This document shows, piece after piece, positions 7,841 through 23,708 of a stretch of DNA of 27,589 nt. Each line of letters begins with the position of its first letter. The stretch's first letter is position 1. The DNA comes from a virus (Duplodnaviria > Heunggongvirae > Uroviricota > Caudoviricetes): the IMG/VR virus record IMGVR_UViG_2563366982_000007. One strand, written 5' to 3'. A model generated the notes under the pieces. It worked only from the letters and a program-made list of their open reading frames with translations, was not told where the DNA came from and did no database searches. Both the position numbers and the translations under genes were made by a program.

Positions 7841-8962
7841 ATGGGCGACTTAGGTGGTATTCAGTCAGATTTAGCCCAACTAGTTAGACTGGTAATAACT
7901 GAACAGTATGATGACGTTCGGTTATATGTCGCTCGCTTGGTGCGTAAATATCGGGAAACTATGCCTGCTCTATCCGAGCAGCTTGATCTTTATCTACGAA
8001 ATAAACCGCAAAAGCCTGCACAAAGCCTGCGTAAGGTTACCGCACCAAAACAAGCGCTGCCTCAAACCATGCCTGTGGACGAGGAGTCAAGGCTTACCTT
8101 GCTTAAAGCACCAAATGAAAAGATTGTGAGCAAACCTCTACTGTCCAGTCAGATAGAAGACTCACTGGATCAAATTATTCTTGAGCGGAAGCACATCGAT
8201 CGCCTCAAGACTCTCGGCTTACAACCAACACGCTCTGCCATTTTTGTTGGCCCTCCGGGTGTAGGTAAAACACTTACGGCAAGCTGGTTAGCTCAGAAAT
8301 TAGGGGTTCCTTTTTACGTTCTTGATTTAACGGCAGTAATGAGCAGCTATCTGGGCAAAAGCGGAAATAACCTTCGGGCAGCTCTAGATTTTGCGAAGAA
8401 AGGGCCGTGCGTTCTTCTGTTAGATGAAATTGATTCAATCGCCAAAAAGAGAAGTGATGATTCTGATGTTGGAGAATTAAAAAGACTTGTTACCGTGATA
8501 CTCCAGGAGGTTGACGAATGGCCGTCTTCTAGTTTGCTACTTGCTGCAACTAACTTCGCTGAGTTGATTGATCCAGCACTATGGAGACGTTTTGATTTAG
8601 TGCTCAATTTTGAGAAGCCAGATAGCGAAAGTATTAAAGAAGCAATTAAACGCTTTTCGGGTCCCGACTACGCGATTTTTGCACGTTGGATAGATCTACT
8701 GGCTATTATGTTCAAAAATGAATCTTTTAGTAATATTGAGCGTTCTATCAACAAATTCCGACGTTCGGTCGCTTTAGGTATTTCCTCAGATGAAGAGTTG
8801 ATTGGGTCGTTCATTAAAGATGGTTTATCAGAATTAGACAGGAATGAACGTAAAGAAATTGCAGTTACTCTAAAAAGAAATTCTAAATTATCCCAGCATG
8901 CCATATCAGACTTAACCGGAGTCAGTAGGGATACAATTAGAAAATACAGTCAAAAAATGTAA
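7841..8962 (+). CDS. Classic AAA+ ATPase with C-terminal helix-turn-helix; candidate defense ATPase
   Basis: Walker A GPPGVGKT (about aa 137-144), Walker B LLLDEID (about aa 192-198), sensor-1-like AATN, arginine-finger-like WRRFD. C-terminal LSQHAISDLTGVSRDTIRKYS resembles an HTH. AT-rich codon usage unlike the flanking phage genes. Confidence 0.85.
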   Translation: MGDLGGIQSDLAQLVRLVITEQYDDVRLYVARLVRKYRETMPALSEQLDLYLRNKPQKPAQSLRKVTAPKQALPQTMPVDEESRLTLLKAPNEKIVSKPLLSSQIEDSLDQIILERKHIDRLKTLGLQPTRSAIFVGPPGVGKTLTASWLAQKLGVPFYVLDLTAVMSSYLGKSGNNLRAALDFAKKGPCVLLLDEIDSIAKKRSDDSDVGELKRLVTVILQEVDEWPSSSLLLAATNFAELIDPALWRRFDLVLNFEKPDSESIKEAIKRFSGPDYAIFARWIDLLAIMFKNESFSNIERSINKFRRSVALGISSDEELIGSFIKDGLSELDRNERKEIAVTLKRNSKLSQHAISDLTGVSRDTIRKYSQKM

Positions 8963-8985
8963 TACAGCATAGATAAGGAGTATGT

Positions 8986-11211
8986 ATGGCGAAAACTAAT
9001 TTTCTGATTGGACGCGGCGAATTATTAACCAGCGATATTCCTGGTCCTAAAAGAGTGCCCGGAAAAGCTGAGGTTTATTCTCTTTACGAATCGAAACAAC
9101 GTTTATTGCCGCAAATTGCATCTACTATAGAAAATTTTGATGATTTACCCAGTCAGGCATGTCCTTATGATTATGCTGTGGCTAAGTTGACGTTGAATCC
9201 AAGCTATATTGCACGCTCTTTTTTTCCTGCAAAAATGCTTAAGTCTACCGGGTTAACGTCTATTGGCAGCAGGACGGTAAAAATTACGCCTCAAAGCTGG
9301 AAGCGAAAAGTTACTGTGTCAGAAGTAACTACGACACAAATGTTTGTTGCTGGTAAAAGAGAATCCTTCAAAGAGTTACCTCATTGGGTGTCAGAACTCA
9401 AAGAGTTTTCTGACGAAGCGATTGATTTTGCACGCATAGAACGGTTCGATGCCTATTTACCCGAAGAGCGTATTATTACCATTGGTGAGCAGGATTCTTC
9501 GTATTTTGAGGTTGGTGTTCATTTACTGCCAGATAATGAACAAGACTTGGTTCAGCAACAATTTGTTCAGTTTGCATCAAATTTGAACATCAAAGTACAT
9601 ACTTCATTAGCTTTTACCGCTGGTACATTATGGTTCGTGCCAATCCAGGCCGATAGAATTACTATTAGTAAGCTTGCGAAATTTACATTTGTACGAGTAA
9701 TAAGACCGGTTCCAAGATTGCGTGGGATTAGACCAATACAAAGGAACTACGGTCCTTTAGCTCAGTGTAAATTACCTGCTGAGGGCCCCGTATCTTCAGA
9801 AATAAAAGTTGCGATTCTTGATGGTGGTTTACCATCAGAGCACGCTATATCGCCATGGTTAAAATCCTATAGAGTTTTGGACGATCATGCAGAGGATGAT
9901 CCAGACGGTTTAGAGCATGGTTTAGCTGTGTCTTCAGCCTTTTTATTTGGACCAATAAGTAATAAATCGGAAGCGAAAAGACCATACTCTTATATTGATA
10001 ACTTAAGAGTTTTGGACAACAAGACCTGCCAAGAAGATCCGCTGGAACTATATCGAACTTTGGGCTTTATTGAAGAGGTATTGTTGTCTCGCCAGTATCA
10101 GTTTATCAATCTAAGTTTAGGTCCAGACCTACCAATTGAAGATACGGAAGTTCATGCATGGACTTCCGTTATTGATGATTTGTTAAGTGATGGTGAAACA
10201 TTAATGACTGTTGCTGTTGGCAACAATGGAGAAATGGATCGCAAGTCTGGTAATGCAAGAATTCAAGTACCAGCCGATTGCGTTAATGCTCTTGCTGTTG
10301 GTGCTTGTGATACAGTTAATGATACGGAATGGAAACGAGCACCATATAGCGCCATTGGGCCAGGCAGAAGTCCTGGCGTGATGAAACCGGATTTAGTTGC
10401 GTTTGGTGGTGACACAGACGAGTACTTTCATGTTTTAGGTAAAGGTAAGAAGCCTGTAATCATACCCCAGCTAGGAACAAGCTTTGCCTCTCCTTACGCC
10501 TTACGAGCAGCTGTTGGTGTTCGGGCAATTTTAGGGAACGATTTGAGCCTACTAGCAATCAAAGCTTTGTTAATTCATGCGTCAAAACAGCTTGATCATC
10601 CTTGTACAGAAGTTGGCTGGGGAAAACTGCCTGAAGACTTGAACGACATTATAGTCAGCCCTGATGGTGTTGCCCGTATCGTCTACCAAGGTGAATTGAA
10701 ACCAGGAAAATACTTACGCGCTTCTCTTCCAATACCTGAAGGTGGCTTGAAAGGTAGAATAAACTTAGCGGCAACTTTCTGTTATGCAACAACCACTGAT
10801 CCACAAGACCCAGCTTCCTATACAAAAGCTGGTTTGGAAGTGACATTCCGGCCAAATGATTCAAAAATCAAAGACGGAAAACAAAATGCTGAAACCAAGG
10901 GATTCTTTGAACTGGCCAAATATTCAACTGAAAGTGAGCGACGTTCTGACATGGGCAAATGGGAGACCGTCTTACATAATTCGAAGAACATGCTAGGTTC
11001 AACTCTAAAAAATCCTGTATTTGACATTCATTATAACGCTCGTGAGGCCGGTGCAAGCATAGCCAGCCATAAGGCAGAAAAAATCAAGTATGCTCTTATA
11101 ATTACCATTAAGGCATCAAAGCACCAAGACCTGTATAACGAAATTTTACGTACTTATAATCAGGTGCTCGTGCCAATTCAACCGCAAACATCAATTCCTA
11201 TTCGTTCGTAA
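8986..11211 (+). CDS. S8 family (subtilisin-like) serine peptidase, cytoplasmic, with N- and C-terminal accessory domains; candidate defense effector or sensor
   Basis: Catalytic triad in canonical S8 order and context: Asp in VAILDGG (about aa 279), His in EHGLAVS (about aa 311), oxyanion Asn in VGNNG (about aa 413), Ser in GTSFASPY (about aa 499). No N-terminal signal peptide. About 270 aa precede and about 230 aa follow the protease core. Starts 23 bp after the ATPase stop with RBS AAGGAG. Confidence 0.85.
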   Translation: MAKTNFLIGRGELLTSDIPGPKRVPGKAEVYSLYESKQRLLPQIASTIENFDDLPSQACPYDYAVAKLTLNPSYIARSFFPAKMLKSTGLTSIGSRTVKITPQSWKRKVTVSEVTTTQMFVAGKRESFKELPHWVSELKEFSDEAIDFARIERFDAYLPEERIITIGEQDSSYFEVGVHLLPDNEQDLVQQQFVQFASNLNIKVHTSLAFTAGTLWFVPIQADRITISKLAKFTFVRVIRPVPRLRGIRPIQRNYGPLAQCKLPAEGPVSSEIKVAILDGGLPSEHAISPWLKSYRVLDDHAEDDPDGLEHGLAVSSAFLFGPISNKSEAKRPYSYIDNLRVLDNKTCQEDPLELYRTLGFIEEVLLSRQYQFINLSLGPDLPIEDTEVHAWTSVIDDLLSDGETLMTVAVGNNGEMDRKSGNARIQVPADCVNALAVGACDTVNDTEWKRAPYSAIGPGRSPGVMKPDLVAFGGDTDEYFHVLGKGKKPVIIPQLGTSFASPYALRAAVGVRAILGNDLSLLAIKALLIHASKQLDHPCTEVGWGKLPEDLNDIIVSPDGVARIVYQGELKPGKYLRASLPIPEGGLKGRINLAATFCYATTTDPQDPASYTKAGLEVTFRPNDSKIKDGKQNAETKGFFELAKYSTESERRSDMGKWETVLHNSKNMLGSTLKNPVFDIHYNAREAGASIASHKAEKIKYALIITIKASKHQDLYNEILRTYNQVLVPIQPQTSIPIRS

Positions 11212-11608: not shown

Positions 11609-12756
<1,148 letters not shown>

Positions 12757-13031
12757 TATGGCACCTGTGTTGTTCTGAGGTGAGCATATCACCTCTGTTC
12801 AGGTGGCCAAATTCAGTAAACCACTTCAAAGAGTCTGACCGTCGATGGTGGCGATAAACTGGAAGGCGTCGTGAAATTATCTGATTGATACAGGAGCTGG
12901 AGAGCCGGGGCATAAATTTTTTATGCCCCGGCGAAGCAGCAGACAAGCGAAGCGCGTCAGCGATACGGCACCTTGCCGACCATACTTCATAAGTGCAAAA
13001 TACGAGCAAAGAAATCAATGGAGGCTGTCTT

Positions 13032-17382: not shown

Positions 17383-18435
17383 ATGAATCTGGTGATGTCA
17401 GATATTACCCGCAACAAGCTGGGTTGCTATATGGCGCAGCAGGCGTCGCTTAACAATATCCCGGTATCTGCACTGGTATCGCGATTTACCGTGGAACCCG
17501 CGGTGCAGCAGCGTTTTGAAAACGCCTCAAAGGAAAGTACCGAATTTACGAAAAGAATTAACGTGATCGGCGTGACCGACCAGAAAGGCGAAAAAATCCT
17601 CCTGGACACCACCGGGCCAATTGCGCGCACGAATAGCAGTTATGACGGCATCAAACGCCGTAACCCGAATAACGTGATCGATATGAAGTCTCGTCAGTAC
17701 CAGTGCGAACAGGTGAACTACGATACCTTTATTTCGTACCCACAGCTTGATACCTGGGCGGCCCACAGCGATTTTCAGTCCCGTATCAGTACACAGATCG
17801 CCCGGCAGGTAGCGCTTGATCGCATCATGATTGGCTTTAACGGCACATCCCACGCCTACGAGTCTGATTTTCACACCAACAAGCTGCTTCAGGACGTTAA
17901 CGTGGGCTGGCTGGAGCACATCAGAACCGATGCCAGCGAGCGCGTAATGAATGACGTGACGCTTACCTCCCGCAACATGGACAACACTGTGGCGCACGCG
18001 GGTAAGTATGCGAATGCCGATGCTCTGGTACAGGATGCGCGCTCATCCCTGCTGGATGAATGGCACAAGGAAGCTGACGACCTCGCGGTGATTATGGGGC
18101 GCAACCTGTTTAACTCGCTGCGTCTGCCCGTGCTGAACAGCATCAGCGGCCAGAATCCCAATGCGGAATTACTTGCCGGGCAGCTCATCCTGTCATCGCG
18201 CACCATTGGCGGGCTGGGCGTGTTCCTTGCGCCGTTCTTCCCGGATGCAACGATGCTTATCACCTCGTTCAACAACCTGTCGATTTACTGGCAGAAAGGT
18301 TCAATGCGTCGCCTGATGAAAGACGAGCCGGAATACAACCGCATCGCCACCTACCAGTCCATCAATGACGCTTATGTCGTTGAAGACTATGGCAAGTGCG
18401 CGATGATCACTGGCCTGAAGTTCGCCGACAGCTAA
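17383..18435 (+). CDS. N: Major capsid protein (P2 gpN-like)
   Basis: 350 aa. FTVEPAVQQ, IMIGFNGT and NLSIYW resemble P2 gpN. Follows O as in P2. Confidence 0.85.
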   Translation: MNLVMSDITRNKLGCYMAQQASLNNIPVSALVSRFTVEPAVQQRFENASKESTEFTKRINVIGVTDQKGEKILLDTTGPIARTNSSYDGIKRRNPNNVIDMKSRQYQCEQVNYDTFISYPQLDTWAAHSDFQSRISTQIARQVALDRIMIGFNGTSHAYESDFHTNKLLQDVNVGWLEHIRTDASERVMNDVTLTSRNMDNTVAHAGKYANADALVQDARSSLLDEWHKEADDLAVIMGRNLFNSLRLPVLNSISGQNPNAELLAGQLILSSRTIGGLGVFLAPFFPDATMLITSFNNLSIYWQKGSMRRLMKDEPEYNRIATYQSINDAYVVEDYGKCAMITGLKFADS

Positions 18436-20405: not shown

Positions 20406-20794
20406 GCAACACATTTAAATTCAGCAGCCGGAGCGAAAAGAATTTGCAGGGCGTAAATCCTGATCTGGTGAAAGTGACCCGACGGGCACTGGAAATTTCG
20501 GAAGTGGATTTTGGTATCACCGAAGGATTGCGCAGTCGTTATCGTCAGAAGCAGCTCGTGACCACAGGCAAGAGCCAGACCATGAACAGTCGCCATCTCA
20601 CAGGGCATGCCGTGGATGTTGTGGCTTATGTCGGCAACCAGGTGTCATGGGAATGGCCGCTGTACGAAAAAATCGCAGCAGCATTCAGACAGGCCAGCCA
20701 GGAACTGAATATTCCGGTGGAATGGGGCGGCGACTGGAAGCCCCTGAAAGACGGACCGCATTTTCAGTTACCACACGGAGCCTATCCGGCATGA
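20402..20794 (+). CDS. Endolysin, peptidase M15-type (L-alanyl-D-glutamate / D-Ala-D-Ala peptidase fold)
   Basis: 130 aa with zinc-ligand-like motifs SRHLTGHAVD and DGPHFQL typical of M15 cell-wall peptidases. Sits in a lysis cassette between holin and spanins. Confidence 0.7.
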   Translation: MSNTFKFSSRSEKNLQGVNPDLVKVTRRALEISEVDFGITEGLRSRYRQKQLVTTGKSQTMNSRHLTGHAVDVVAYVGNQVSWEWPLYEKIAAAFRQASQELNIPVEWGGDWKPLKDGPHFQLPHGAYPA

Positions 20795-21198
20795 AGCTCT
20801 GGCCCACGCTTGGCGTCGCTTTCCTTCTGATTGCCGCATGGGGAACATCCATGCGTCTGTCGTGGTCGCTGGGCCGGGAGAACGCCAGAAACGAAGCGCA
20901 GGCCAGCACCCTGAAAAGTACCGTCGACACACTGAATATCATCAGCGCCGGGGTACAGGATATGCAGCAGGTGCTGGCTCAGCTCCGCGCGGAAAATCAG
21001 CAACGCAATCAGGACGGAGAGGTAAGACGTGAACAGCTACGCAACGATATTGCAAAAGATGAATGCGCCCACGCTTTGCCTGACGCTCGTTTTACTGACA
21101 GGTTGCGCAGGCACGCAGAACGCGCCAGGGCCAGCGCCGTCAGTCCGGCTTATACCGCAGACGCTGACCATGCCGGTAACGCCCCCCCCCTTCCCTGA
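20791..21198 (+). CDS. i-spanin (Rz-like)
   Basis: N-terminal transmembrane segment MKLWPTLGVAFLLIAAWG followed by a charged, coiled-coil-like periplasmic region. Start trimmed to the internal Met. Confidence 0.6.
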   Translation: MKLWPTLGVAFLLIAAWGTSMRLSWSLGRENARNEAQASTLKSTVDTLNIISAGVQDMQQVLAQLRAENQQRNQDGEVRREQLRNDIAKDECAHALPDARFTDRLRRHAERARASAVSPAYTADADHAGNAPPLP

Positions 21199-21340
21199 CC
21201 CACCCACATGGGGAAACCTCGGAATATGGGGCGACCGCCTTCTGGATGCACTGGAAACCTGTAACGCGGATAAACGGGCCATTGCTGAACTGGATAAGAG
21301 AATAGCCGAACTGACACACCAGACGGGAGTAACACAATGA
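21059..21340 (+). CDS. o-spanin (Rz1-like lipoprotein), overlapping the 3' end of Rz in another frame
   Basis: Lipoprotein signal with lipobox LLTGC and a proline-rich mature region (PVTPPPFPDPPTW). Overlaps Rz, as in P2 lysB/lysC. Confidence 0.6.
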   Translation: MNAPTLCLTLVLLTGCAGTQNAPGPAPSVRLIPQTLTMPVTPPPFPDPPTWGNLGIWGDRLLDALETCNADKRAIAELDKRIAELTHQTGVTQ

Positions 21341-23217
21341 CCAGTAAGAACTTTGCACTGATTACAGCCATGACACAGGCTGAACTGACTCAAAAGGTGA
21401 ATGAACATCTTGCGAAAGGGTGGCATCTTCAGGGGGAGACGCGGGTTGCCTACGAACCCGGCACCCCGTGGTATCTAATGCAGGCAATGGTGGCCGATGG
21501 CACTACAGACATCTCACCTGATTCCCCCCAGCACGGCAGCGTGCCGGAGTGGTATTACGTGGTGGTACTTGCTGGTCAATCCAATGCCATGTCATATGGT
21601 GATGGAATGCCGCTGCCGGATTCTTACGATGCGCCCCACCCACGCATTAAGCAACTGGCCCGTCGCAACACAGTGACTCCCGGTGGTAAAGCATGCGCAT
21701 TTAACGACATCATTCCGGCAGACCACTGCCTGCATGATGTTCAGGATATGAGCGCACTGAATCATCCGAAGGCAGACCTGAGCAAAGGGCAGTACGGCTG
21801 TGTCGGCCAGGGCTTACATATTGCCAAAAAACTGCTTCCGTATATCCCGAATAACGCGGGGATCCTGCTGGTACCATGCTGTCGTGGTGGTTCGGCATTC
21901 ACCCAGGGCGCGGAGGGGACATTCAGTGCGGACACGGGGGCCAGCCAGGATTCGGCACGCTGGGGTGTGGGTAAACCGTTATACCAGGACCTGATCGCAC
22001 GCACCAAAGCGGCATTACAGAAGAACCCGAAAAATGTGTTGCTGGCGGTGTGCTGGATGCAGGGCGAATTTGACATGAGCGCTGCCACCTACGCACAGCA
22101 ACCGGACCTGTTCACGGCCATGCTGAAGCAGTTCCGTACTGACCTTTCCGGATTTAACGCGCAGTGCCATGGCGGCAGTGCTGCAGTTGTACCGTGGATT
22201 TGTGGCGACACGACGTATTACTGGAAAAACACATACGGCACACAGTATGACTCCGTCTACGGCGCGTACAAAAACAGGGAGAGCGACAACGTTTTCTTTG
22301 TGCCGTTCATGACCGACGGTAACGGCAACAACACGCCCACCAACTTACCGGCAGAAGACCCGGATATTGCTGATGCAGGTTATTACGGCGCGCAATCCCG
22401 TAGTAATGGTAATTGGGTATCGTCAAATCGCCCGACACATTTCAGTTCATGGGCGCGCAGGGGCATTATTTCGGATCGCCTGGCAACCGCTATTCTGAAC
22501 GCAGTTGGTCGAACCAGCGCCTTCATCAGCGGTACCGCACCGGAGATTAAACCCTCGCCCGGCGGCGACACTCCATCGGGGCCGTCTGATGGTGACACAT
22601 CCGTTCGTACAGTCTCCCTGCTGCCGACAGCCGGAGAGGCTGCTGCGCAGGGCTGGACCATCACCGGCGGCAGTGTTGCGCTGGAAGATGGTGTGTTTAA
22701 GGTTACCAAGCAGAGCAATAAAACCTGGTCCCTGATGCATCCGGTGGATGACGCAGTCTCCCTGCTGACACGGGGTGGCAGACTGAGCTGTAAGTTTCGA
22801 CTGTCAGGCGCACTGACCAACAACCAGTTCGGTCTGGGAATTTATCTGTATACCGATGTAGCGTTACCTGACGTCGTGGCGATGACCGGGACTGGTAACC
22901 CGTTCCTGATGTCGTTCTTCACCCAGACCACAGACGGCAAACTGAATCTGATGCATCACAAGAAAGCCGGAAACACAAAGTTGGGCGAGTTCGGGAATTA
23001 CAGTAACGACTGGCAGACGCTGGAGCTGGTGTTCACCGCCGGCAGTGCCACGGTTACTCCGAAACTGAATGGAGTGGCTGGACCGGCATTCCAGGTCATA
23101 AAAGACAGTCTGACACTGGGGCTGAATGCACTGACGCTGACGGATATTACCAAAAATGCAACGTATGGCGTCGATATCGGCAGCCTGGTGCTGGAAATCA
23201 ATAATCCCGCAGCATAA
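21337..23217 (+). CDS. SGNH-hydrolase / sialate-O-acetylesterase-like protein (NanS-p-like) with C-terminal lectin-like domain; moron
   Basis: 626 aa. GQSN-type esterase motif in VLAGQSNAMSYGDG. The N-terminal ~50 aa resemble the domain found in prophage NanS-p esterases. Inserted between the lysis cassette and tail gene R. Confidence 0.65.
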   Translation: MTSKNFALITAMTQAELTQKVNEHLAKGWHLQGETRVAYEPGTPWYLMQAMVADGTTDISPDSPQHGSVPEWYYVVVLAGQSNAMSYGDGMPLPDSYDAPHPRIKQLARRNTVTPGGKACAFNDIIPADHCLHDVQDMSALNHPKADLSKGQYGCVGQGLHIAKKLLPYIPNNAGILLVPCCRGGSAFTQGAEGTFSADTGASQDSARWGVGKPLYQDLIARTKAALQKNPKNVLLAVCWMQGEFDMSAATYAQQPDLFTAMLKQFRTDLSGFNAQCHGGSAAVVPWICGDTTYYWKNTYGTQYDSVYGAYKNRESDNVFFVPFMTDGNGNNTPTNLPAEDPDIADAGYYGAQSRSNGNWVSSNRPTHFSSWARRGIISDRLATAILNAVGRTSAFISGTAPEIKPSPGGDTPSGPSDGDTSVRTVSLLPTAGEAAAQGWTITGGSVALEDGVFKVTKQSNKTWSLMHPVDDAVSLLTRGGRLSCKFRLSGALTNNQFGLGIYLYTDVALPDVVAMTGTGNPFLMSFFTQTTDGKLNLMHHKKAGNTKLGEFGNYSNDWQTLELVFTAGSATVTPKLNGVAGPAFQVIKDSLTLGLNALTLTDITKNATYGVDIGSLVLEINNPAA

Positions 23218-23240
23218 GGAAGAGCAGGAGAGCAAAACAG

Positions 23241-23708
23241 ATGTTTAAGACAAACAGTCTGCGAGAGTCCATGCTTCATGGGTGTCGGTGGTGCCAGGCT
23301 AATCCCGAGAAATTCACCATTTTCGTGGAGAGCGGCAACATTGAAACGACCGGGGAAACGCCCTCGTTTGTTTACCGCTATCAGATGGTGATGTTTGTCA
23401 TGGATTACGCCGGAGAGCTGGACGACCTCACGCTGCCGCTGCTGGCGTGGTTATCCGAAAATCAGCCACAGTTGTTGCTCAACCCTGAGCGTAATCAGGA
23501 CATCAAATTCTCCGCCGTTATCAATGACGATGACAGCGCCGATCTCCTGTTTACGCTCCCCCTGCGGGAACGCGTTCGCATTACGCGCAACAGTCAGGGG
23601 ACACCGCAGGCAGAACACCTGCAGGAGCCAAAACCCCGTCTGCCCTCTTCCGAAGGCGACTGGTCGCATGTATTCCAGGATGTGACGTGGGGTGAAAGCG
23701 ATGGATAA
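23241..23708 (+). CDS. R: Tail completion protein (P2 gpR-like)
   Basis: 155 aa (P2 R is 155 aa). Motif pattern NPEKFTIFVESGNI ... AWLSENQPQ resembles P2 gpR. Confidence 0.7.
   Translation: MFKTNSLRESMLHGCRWCQANPEKFTIFVESGNIETTGETPSFVYRYQMVMFVMDYAGELDDLTLPLLAWLSENQPQLLLNPERNQDIKFSAVINDDDSADLLFTLPLRERVRITRNSQGTPQAEHLQEPKPRLPSSEGDWSHVFQDVTWGESDG

Follow-up and report, generated by a model that had tools for sequence, protein, structure and literature searches.

A NanS-p-type sialate O-acetylesterase gene with a backbone-specific N-terminal module in the late region of a P88-like prophage of Escherichia coli

A nanS-p-type gene occupies the slot between lysC and gpR

In this study, we analysed a gene for a putative sialate O-acetylesterase, which is located at positions 21337..23217 (+) of the virus record IMGVR_UViG_2563366982_000007, a stretch of 27,589 nucleotides (nt) that is referred to as the window in the following. 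The gene is an intact open reading frame with an ATG start, which encodes 626 amino acids (aa; the coordinates include the stop codon), and its guanine-cytosine (GC) content of 0.55-0.56 is the same as that of the flanking late genes. The window represents an apparently complete P2-family prophage of E. coli with a P88-like backbone (Xuanwuvirus, Peduoviridae). A preliminary description had already placed the gene in a P2-family backbone, and this holds true according to Pfam matches to P2-type hallmarks, including gpA, gpO, gpN, gpM, gpL, X, R, S, V, W, J and I, and according to the flanks, which are 96-97% identical at the nt level to P88 and about ten other Xuanwuvirus records. These records lack the gene, and the window aligns with them in two pieces at a coverage of 67%.

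The late genes upstream follow each other in the order portal, large terminase, gpO scaffold, P2-type capsid, small terminase, gpL, gpX, holin, M15 endolysin, lysB and lysC, and the downstream genes in the order gpR, gpS, gpV, gpW, gpJ and gpI. The proposed location of the gene between the lysis and tail modules can therefore be narrowed down to the slot between lysC and gpR. The penultimate gene of the lysis cassette, lysB (20791..21198, +; DUF2570, i-spanin-like), was assigned by transferring the P88 annotation via the blastn offset, and the corresponding open reading frame is present. It is followed by lysC for an Rz1-like o-spanin (21080..21340, +; Pfam LysC, E 1.6e-13, in agreement with the RefSeq annotation of the copy in E. 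coli O104:H4), and on the other side of the esterase gene gpR encodes the tail completion protein (23241..23708, +; Pfam P2_Phage_GpR, E 4.5e-38).

A blastn comparison of the window with P88 revealed that the homology (96%) stops at position 21284 and restarts at 23283. According to this comparison and the alignment, the segment in between (21285..23282, +; about 2.0 kb) replaces 93 bp of P88. It covers the 3' end of lysC, whose final ~56 nt diverge from P88, contains the nanS-p gene with the 23-bp spacer behind it and extends into gpR, of which it includes the first 14 codons. The slot had been described as one that holds no such gene in P2, where indeed none is known at this position; by annotation, it is empty in P88 as well.

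The predicted protein consists of three modules and retains the NanS active site

Pfam searches with the 626-aa protein, which cover the profile check of the SGNH fold and the N-terminal domain suggested earlier, identified a divergent variant of DUF1737 at aa 4-53 (30.5 bits, cut-off 24), the SASA sialate acetylesterase domain at aa 75-271 (49.2 bits, cut-off 24.8) and DUF6645 at aa 477-587 (70.1 bits, E 2e-19, above the gathering threshold). A full-length match was obtained with phrog_143 of the PHROGs database (1083 bits), NCBIfam contained no model matching the protein, and its RefSeq name is 'DUF6645 domain-containing protein'. At the structural level, E. coli NanS/YjhS (3pt5) aligns with aa 69-388 (320 residues, E 2.8e-123), and aa 431-623 match 6yp6 (E 7.4e-31), a crystal structure of the lectin-like domain at the C-terminus of NanS-p. 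Together with the segment that replaces P88 DNA, these matches go far beyond chance.

Based on these matches, the protein can be divided into three modules. Module 1 (aa 1-55; 21337..21501, +) is a P2-family-specific variant of DUF1737 according to Pfam, identity values, tblastn and an AlphaFold2 model. It is followed by linker 1 (aa 56-68; 21502..21540, +), which has the Pro/Ser/Asp-rich sequence TTDISPDSPQHGS and a predicted local distance difference test (pLDDT) score below 50 in the AlphaFold2 model. Module 2 (aa 69-400; 21541..22536, +) corresponds to the SGNH (type II) sialate 9-O-acetylesterase of the NanS type, as indicated by the 3pt5 match and its motifs. Linker 2 (aa 401-430; 22537..22626, +), which is Pro/Ser/Gly-rich and was delimited from the sequence and the domain limits, leads to module 3 (aa 431-626; 22627..23214, +), a lectin-like jelly-roll (DUF6645) according to 6yp6 and Pfam.

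NanS carries the four active-site blocks GQSNA, RGGSAF, MQGEFD and SHFS (PMC10792757), and its catalytic residues are the nucleophile Ser19 and the base His301 (PMC9063846). Its oxyanion residues are Gln18 and a Gly. All four blocks are kept in the window protein (GQSNA at aa 80-84, RGGSAF at aa 183-188, MQGEFD at aa 241-246 and THFS at aa 367-370), so that Ser82 (codon 21580-21582) is the predicted nucleophile and His368 (codon 22438-22440) the predicted base. The preliminary description had recognized the 626-aa frame with a GQSN motif, which corresponds to aa 80-83, and had interpreted the protein as a NanS-like SGNH esterase with a beta-rich, lectin-like C-terminal region. The structure matches and the intact catalytic blocks support this assignment, and the C-terminal region is the lectin domain of NanS-p. 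The chromosomal NanS (YjhS) is identical to the window protein in the blocks GQSNA, RGGSAF and MQGEFD and also has the histidine block HFS. However, it is a catalytic domain alone, whereas the window protein harbors DUF1737 and the lectin domain in addition, and it belongs to the sialic-acid regulon of the host, whereas the window gene is located in a phage late operon (family knowledge; PMC8065619).

Each sequence feature that characterizes NanS-p was found, namely DUF1737, a SASA/SGNH type II domain, the Ser-His dyad together with the oxyanion residues, DUF6645 and a position in a prophage late region. As judged from its sequence, the gene is an allele of the NanS-p-type sialate O-acetylesterases and an accessory late gene of a P88-like prophage. 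For NanS as well as for NanS-p alleles from EDL933 and from O104:H4, de-O-acetylation of 5-N-acetyl-9-O-acetylneuraminic acid (Neu5,9Ac2) and of mucin glycans has been reported, together with support of growth on Neu5,9Ac2 (PMC8065619). Five NanS-p alleles of O104:H4 were reported to be active (PMC8065619), and the copy in the P88-type prophage may be one of them; in the genome of O104:H4 strain C227-11, we found homologues of the gene at five places. An activity as sialate esterase can be inferred for the window allele from an identity of 69-89% to active homologues and from the intact catalytic blocks. The SGNH domain, with Ser82, His368 and an oxyanion hole formed by Gln81/Gly, would remove 9-O-acetyl groups from sialic acids, e.g. 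from Neu5,9Ac2 on gut mucins, and the lectin-like jelly-roll would direct the enzyme to glycans.

The operon anatomy argues for expression from the late transcript

The ATG of the esterase gene (21337-21339) overlaps the TGA stop of lysC (21338-21340) in the form of ATGA, a Shine-Dalgarno-like GGGAG, read from the sequence, is located 7 nt 5' of the ATG (21325..21329, +), and gpR starts 23 bp 3' of the esterase stop. A consensus scan revealed two promoter-like sites compared to 1.9 expected from shuffled controls, and six terminator-like sites compared to 3.5 +/- 1.9 expected, i.e. no excess of either signal, and neither of the terminator-like sites on the + strand is located between the esterase stop and gpR; such consensus scans represent weak evidence. 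From the stop/start overlap, the 23-bp gap and the lack of any excess of promoters or terminators we conclude that the gene most likely belongs to the late transcript.

The gene had initially been called a moron. It shows the accessory character of a moron, since it is present in some and absent in other collinear relatives. However, a classical moron with its own promoter and terminator was rejected because of the overlap with lysC, the short distance to gpR and the lack of signal excess, so that the term does not apply in its strict sense.

As part of the transcript for head, lysis and tail genes and translationally coupled to lysC, the esterase would be produced only after induction of the prophage. 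Since the N-terminus is a folded DUF1737 and not a signal peptide, export must depend on lysis, and the protein would leave the cell when the adjacent cassette of holin, endolysin and spanins lyses it. This position in the late operon and the lack of a signal peptide also fit the classical model for NanS-p (PMC8065619), according to which the enzyme would be a soluble public good without any role in the virion, which is set free when a minority of induced cells lyses and then removes acetyl groups from the sialic acids of mucins to the benefit of surviving sibling lysogens. DUF1737 would then only serve folding or oligomerisation, and linkage to the backbone would account for the P2-family-specific sequence of this module. 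We regard this explanation as a serious possibility, to which we nevertheless assign somewhat less than an even chance, and we return to it below with the evidence on the N-terminal module.

The arrangement is common among E. coli genomes

Next to the window, we considered 5,426 complete E. coli genomes. A query spanning the junction from lysB/lysC through the esterase gene to gpR was fully covered in 373 of them (~7%), and the empty P88-type junction was present in about 689. The gene is therefore not a structural tail protein conserved in all related phages, given that about two thirds of the P88-type junctions are empty. At least one homologue of the gene is encoded in 4,518 of the 5,426 genomes, with 1-19 copies per genome. 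Strain M1/5 is 100% identical to the window, and the genomes of the 2011 O104:H4 outbreak contain the same prophage with the same gene (99.3% nt identity over the gene), so that the carriers include the O104:H4 outbreak clone as well as commensal or extraintestinal pathogenic E. coli (ExPEC)-type strains. A contig scan with one genome per species yielded only five loci, which were found in E. albertii, in Escherichia sp. and, as NanS-like genes, in Proteus and in a metagenome-assembled genome, and a scan of this design says little about the spread outside Escherichia.

The three P88-like phage records with the gene (PV468777.1, ON470599.1 and ON470623.1) each end inside of it, and many proteins of the family are annotated as 'partial'. 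Both are likely caused by assembly or contig breaks at a multi-copy gene, and nanS-p genes would consequently be under-represented in phage collections. The partial entries, together with the polymorphic presence and the mosaic structure of the locus, could also point to a decaying passenger, i.e. a recombination scar or a pseudogene. However, the frame of 626 codons is intact, all catalytic blocks are present, and full-length copies with an identity of 98.7-100% were found in hundreds of genomes, while contig breaks account for the partial entries. We therefore rejected the pseudogene and consider decay of the gene highly improbable.

The gene is a chimera with a breakpoint at a domain boundary

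The comparison with alleles of lambdoid phages revealed a pronounced difference between the modules. With respect to the 434 and Shiga toxin 1 (Stx1) phage alleles, the identity at the aa level is 29-33% in the DUF1737 module, but 87-89% in the esterase and 84-85% in the lectin domain; with respect to the 933W type, the corresponding values are 22%, 68% and 36%. Overall, the DUF1737 module is 22-35% identical to the lambdoid alleles, which share 45-86% identity in this module among themselves. Among 50,697 phage records, the whole protein matched 353 records, whereas tblastn with aa 1-68 matched three P88-like records only. An exhaustive HMMER search with aa 1-68 retrieved 11 cluster representatives at E<=1e-3, which comprise truncated copies of the window protein, several proteins of 57-87 aa, possibly stand-alone DUF1737 proteins, and a few longer ones, and a word-based search with the N-terminus returned near-identical truncated copies only.

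At the DNA level, the alignments with lambdoid and Mu-type alleles begin mostly at position 21543, where the esterase starts, and in the remaining cases not more than 25 nt away from it. Downstream of this position, segments of 150 nt reach 98% identity to an Stx1 phage (21787-21936) and 99% identity to an E. albertii allele (22537-23136), which indicates several recent exchanges of the body of the gene. Read in this way, the sequence is that of a chimera, in which the lysC flank together with the N-terminal module is of P2-family origin, whereas the body has been exchanged repeatedly with lambdoid alleles of the 434/Stx1/E. albertii type, with a predicted breakpoint at the domain boundary at nt 21543. 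The view that the same cargo crosses phage families, which was put forward in the preliminary description, is consequently valid for the esterase/lectin body, but not for the N-terminal DUF1737 module, which is specific for the P2 family. We consider it very probable that this history and the proposed sequence of late-operon expression, release by lysis and deacetylation of mucin sialic acids are jointly correct.

The NanS-p proteins of the lambdoid prophages (933W L0105/z1466, phi24B vb_24B_21/gp84, 434, Stx1a, YYZ-2008 and JLK-2012) show the same DUF1737-SASA-DUF6645 order as the window protein, and in both cases the gene is located in the late region beside the lysis cassette and encodes no signal peptide. 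Unlike the lambdoid genes, which lie between Q/stx and the holin gene, the window gene is located 3' of the spanin genes; it belongs to a P2-family myovirus, has a 4-aa loop insertion in module 1 and is not followed by DUF1378/DUF826 genes.

Different phage backbones carry different N-terminal modules

For a broader view, the region before AGQSN was classified in 89 full-length homologues, which resulted in about nine types. Two of them resemble the type of the window, with 51-57% identity, an (S/Y)EPG insertion and a P(W/F)YLMQ motif, and are encoded in two other P2-family lineages (P0080 in the loci L013-L015 and P0095 in L016), in the same slot from lysC to gpR. The crossing between phage families is thus not a one-off event, given that three or more P2-family lineages, which have diverged from each other, carry the gene in this slot, and that the junction of the window is occupied in ~7% of the complete E. 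coli genomes. The other P2-family alleles differ from the window allele in the esterase (69-71% identity) and in the lectin domain (39-41%), and their lineages differ in a lysozyme-type endolysin, a capsid protein that is 61-62% identical to that of the window and an extra DUF1378 gene after the esterase gene. The DNA homology with the loci of the L013-L016 type extends without a break from lysC across the N-terminal module and on into the esterase, and tblastn with the second P2-family module retrieved P88-like records first (52%) and lambdoid ones weakly (28-34%).

The other DUF1737 types that we examined are lambdoid. Their position is between the genes for the Q antiterminator and the holin, and they are succeeded by genes with DUF1378 and DUF826. 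In Mu-like prophages, the body is 86-89% identical to lambdoid alleles, and the N-terminal domain of ~113 aa is beta-rich and not a DUF1737. This domain matched no Pfam or PHROG family, a fold search with it was uninformative, and in the phage collection it occurs only inside regions annotated as 'inserted Mu-like phage'. The Mu-like alleles (L017-L019; gene at 10001-12049 in L017) encode 682 aa with a predicted all-beta N-terminus and are located at the right end of the prophage, between a gene for a Gin-type invertase and DUF1378, DUF826, Com and methylase genes.

A DUF1378 gene, often together with DUF826, follows nanS-p in lambdoid and Mu-like prophages and in the two other P2-family lineages (L013, 12036-12200; L016, 12105-12257; L017, 12184-12366; L020, 12111-12293), which gives the impression of a mobile cassette. 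It is absent from the window. Two close homologues have unusual architectures: P0018 (752 aa) combines a P88-type N-terminus with PF07484 (phage tail Collar), and P0052 (682 aa) has molybdopterin-oxidoreductase domains ahead of SASA and DUF6645. Both may be assembly chimeras or real fusions.

The N-terminal module is a candidate capsid anchor

For the NanS-p homologue gp84 of phage phi24B, a recent preprint reports that the protein is an abundant virion protein, that hexamers of its DUF1737 plug the centres of the capsid hexons via a loop 'tooth' with Tyr42, as seen by cryo-electron microscopy (cryo-EM), and that proteolysis removes the esterase and lectin portions after release (bioRxiv 10.64898/2026.04.10.717836). 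The AlphaFold2 model of module 1 predicts a beta-alpha-beta-beta-beta arrangement (pLDDT 80), and the 4-aa insertion YEPG is located in the loop that is equivalent to the capsid 'tooth' of gp84. This loop has the sequence AYEPGTPWYLMQ in the window protein compared to STAGYGAEFIQ in gp84, offers Tyr39, Trp45 and Tyr46 as available aromatics and is, according to the alignment, the most backbone-specific region of module 1. The linker sequence TTDISPDSPQHGS is also similar to the SISSP region in gp84.

By analogy with gp84, module 1 would thus probably tether the enzyme to the hexons of the P2-type capsid, with the major capsid protein of the P2 family (gpN type; 17383..18435, +; Pfam Phage_cap_P2, E 1e-115) as candidate docking partner. 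The virions would then display a mucin-directed esterase and shed it later by cleavage of the linker. With regard to decoration proteins of hexon centres, i.e. the N-terminal domain of gp84 and, functionally, Hoc of T4 and pb10 of T5, the window protein has the homologous DUF1737 with a helix and an antiparallel sheet, followed by a Pro/Ser linker. However, the anchor loop of the window protein differs from that of gp84, whose binding was seen by cryo-EM, and the capsid to which the window protein would bind is of the P2 type (T=7). Decoration proteins are not known from capsids of this type.

The public-good explanation introduced above, in which the enzyme remains soluble, makes several observations intelligible that weigh against tethering. 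First, about two thirds of the P88-type prophages manage without the gene, which is thus dispensable for these phages. Second, recombination with lambdoid alleles starts only where the homology starts, i.e. in the esterase, so that the co-segregation of N-terminal module and backbone could be mere linkage. Third, the lambdoid 'type A' DUF1737 occurs together with at least two sets of head genes (a lambda-type and a protease-capsid fusion type), which argues against strict capsid specificity. Fourth, the divergence of the N-terminal module does not follow that of the capsid protein: the capsid proteins of L013 and L016 are 83% identical and their modules 51%, and over the three P2-family lineages no clear correlation was apparent from what are too few data points. 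Furthermore, fold searches with the N-terminal model returned nothing specific, and statements on expression, activity and a virion role of this allele draw on its sequence.

Arguing against a purely soluble enzyme, the phi24B module was found bound to hexons by cryo-EM and the protein forms an abundant virion band (bioRxiv 10.64898/2026.04.10.717836). Moreover, lambdoid, P2-family and Mu-like backbones each keep their own N-terminus and swap the body, as virion-anchored fibres and spikes do, and the 'tooth'-equivalent loop is the part that is most backbone-specific. Weighing both sides, we consider tethering to the P2-type capsid plausible, albeit just short of an even chance.

If the enzyme is virion-borne as in phi24B, it might also act during adsorption, a possibility raised before (PMC8065619), by stripping O-acetyl groups from O-antigen, capsule or K1-type polysialic acid and thereby aiding receptor access or freeing progeny from debris. 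The O104:H4 copy of the prophage indeed contains a gene for a serine O-acetyltransferase beside its tail-fibre genes. However, enzymes that act on Neu5,9Ac2 and mucin glycans share 69-89% identity with the catalytic domain, the tail-fibre module is located elsewhere in the prophage, and two thirds of the P88-type phages infect without the gene. Most E. coli hosts of the prophage, e.g. M1/5 and O104:H4, are not known for a display of sialic acid, which likewise counts against such a function. We therefore regard a role in adsorption as unlikely.

Additional cargo of the prophage

Apart from the esterase gene, the window contains a segment of low GC content at 7841..11211 (+; 0.40-0.44 compared to 0.53-0.59 elsewhere), which encodes the defence pair IetA/IetS, i.e. 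IetA, an AAA ATPase (PADLOC, E 1e-77), and IetS, an S8 subtilase (E 1e-51). The pair is located in the interval that separates gpA, a replication gene, from the portal gene and that is known as an accessory hotspot of P2-family prophages. The IetAS genes are adjoined by an IS3-family-like insertion sequence (11609..12792, -) with orfA (12454..12792, -; HTH_Tnp_1) and orfB (11609..12427, -; rve integrase core). In the O104:H4 C227-11 copy of the prophage, the serine O-acetyltransferase gene (L003, 24542..25114, -) follows the tail-fibre assembly gene, so that this prophage combines genes for an O-acetyltransferase and for an O-acetylesterase; the matching region is located beyond the end of the window.

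Discussion

The enzyme family, its biochemistry and this very gene, which is present in RefSeq genomes, in PHROGs and in O104:H4, are already known. Among the papers accessible to our literature search, none was found that links NanS-p to P2-like phages or Peduoviridae. New are the assignment of the gene to its backbone and its frequency, the late-operon anatomy and the backbone-specific N-terminal module in three P2-family lineages as opposed to lambdoid and Mu-like phages.

NanS-p allows pathogenic E. coli to use the O-acetylated sialic acids of mucins and is usually discussed as cargo of Stx or lambdoid phages. That a full-length and, as far as the sequence indicates, apparently active allele is common in P2-family prophages widens the reservoir of this trait and adds routes for its exchange. 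The combination of a backbone-specific N-terminus with a promiscuous body fits the recent finding of DUF1737 as a capsid-binding domain, and a P2-type phage that naturally occurs with and without the gene represents a genetically tractable system to address the role of a virion-borne sialate esterase in mucus.

Extending this idea, NanS-p proteins of phages of all morphotypes might be virion-displayed esterases for mucin sialates, which combine an exchangeable enzyme/lectin head with a backbone-specific anchor. The anchors would be DUF1737 variants for lambdoid and P2-type capsids and the unrelated beta-rich domain for Mu-like phages. We put this generalization forward tentatively and regard it as rather doubtful at present. 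If it is true, the product of the window gene would be the first decoration protein to be described for capsids of the P2 type, and virions targeted to mucus would be released by P2-family prophages, which a large proportion of E. coli harbors.

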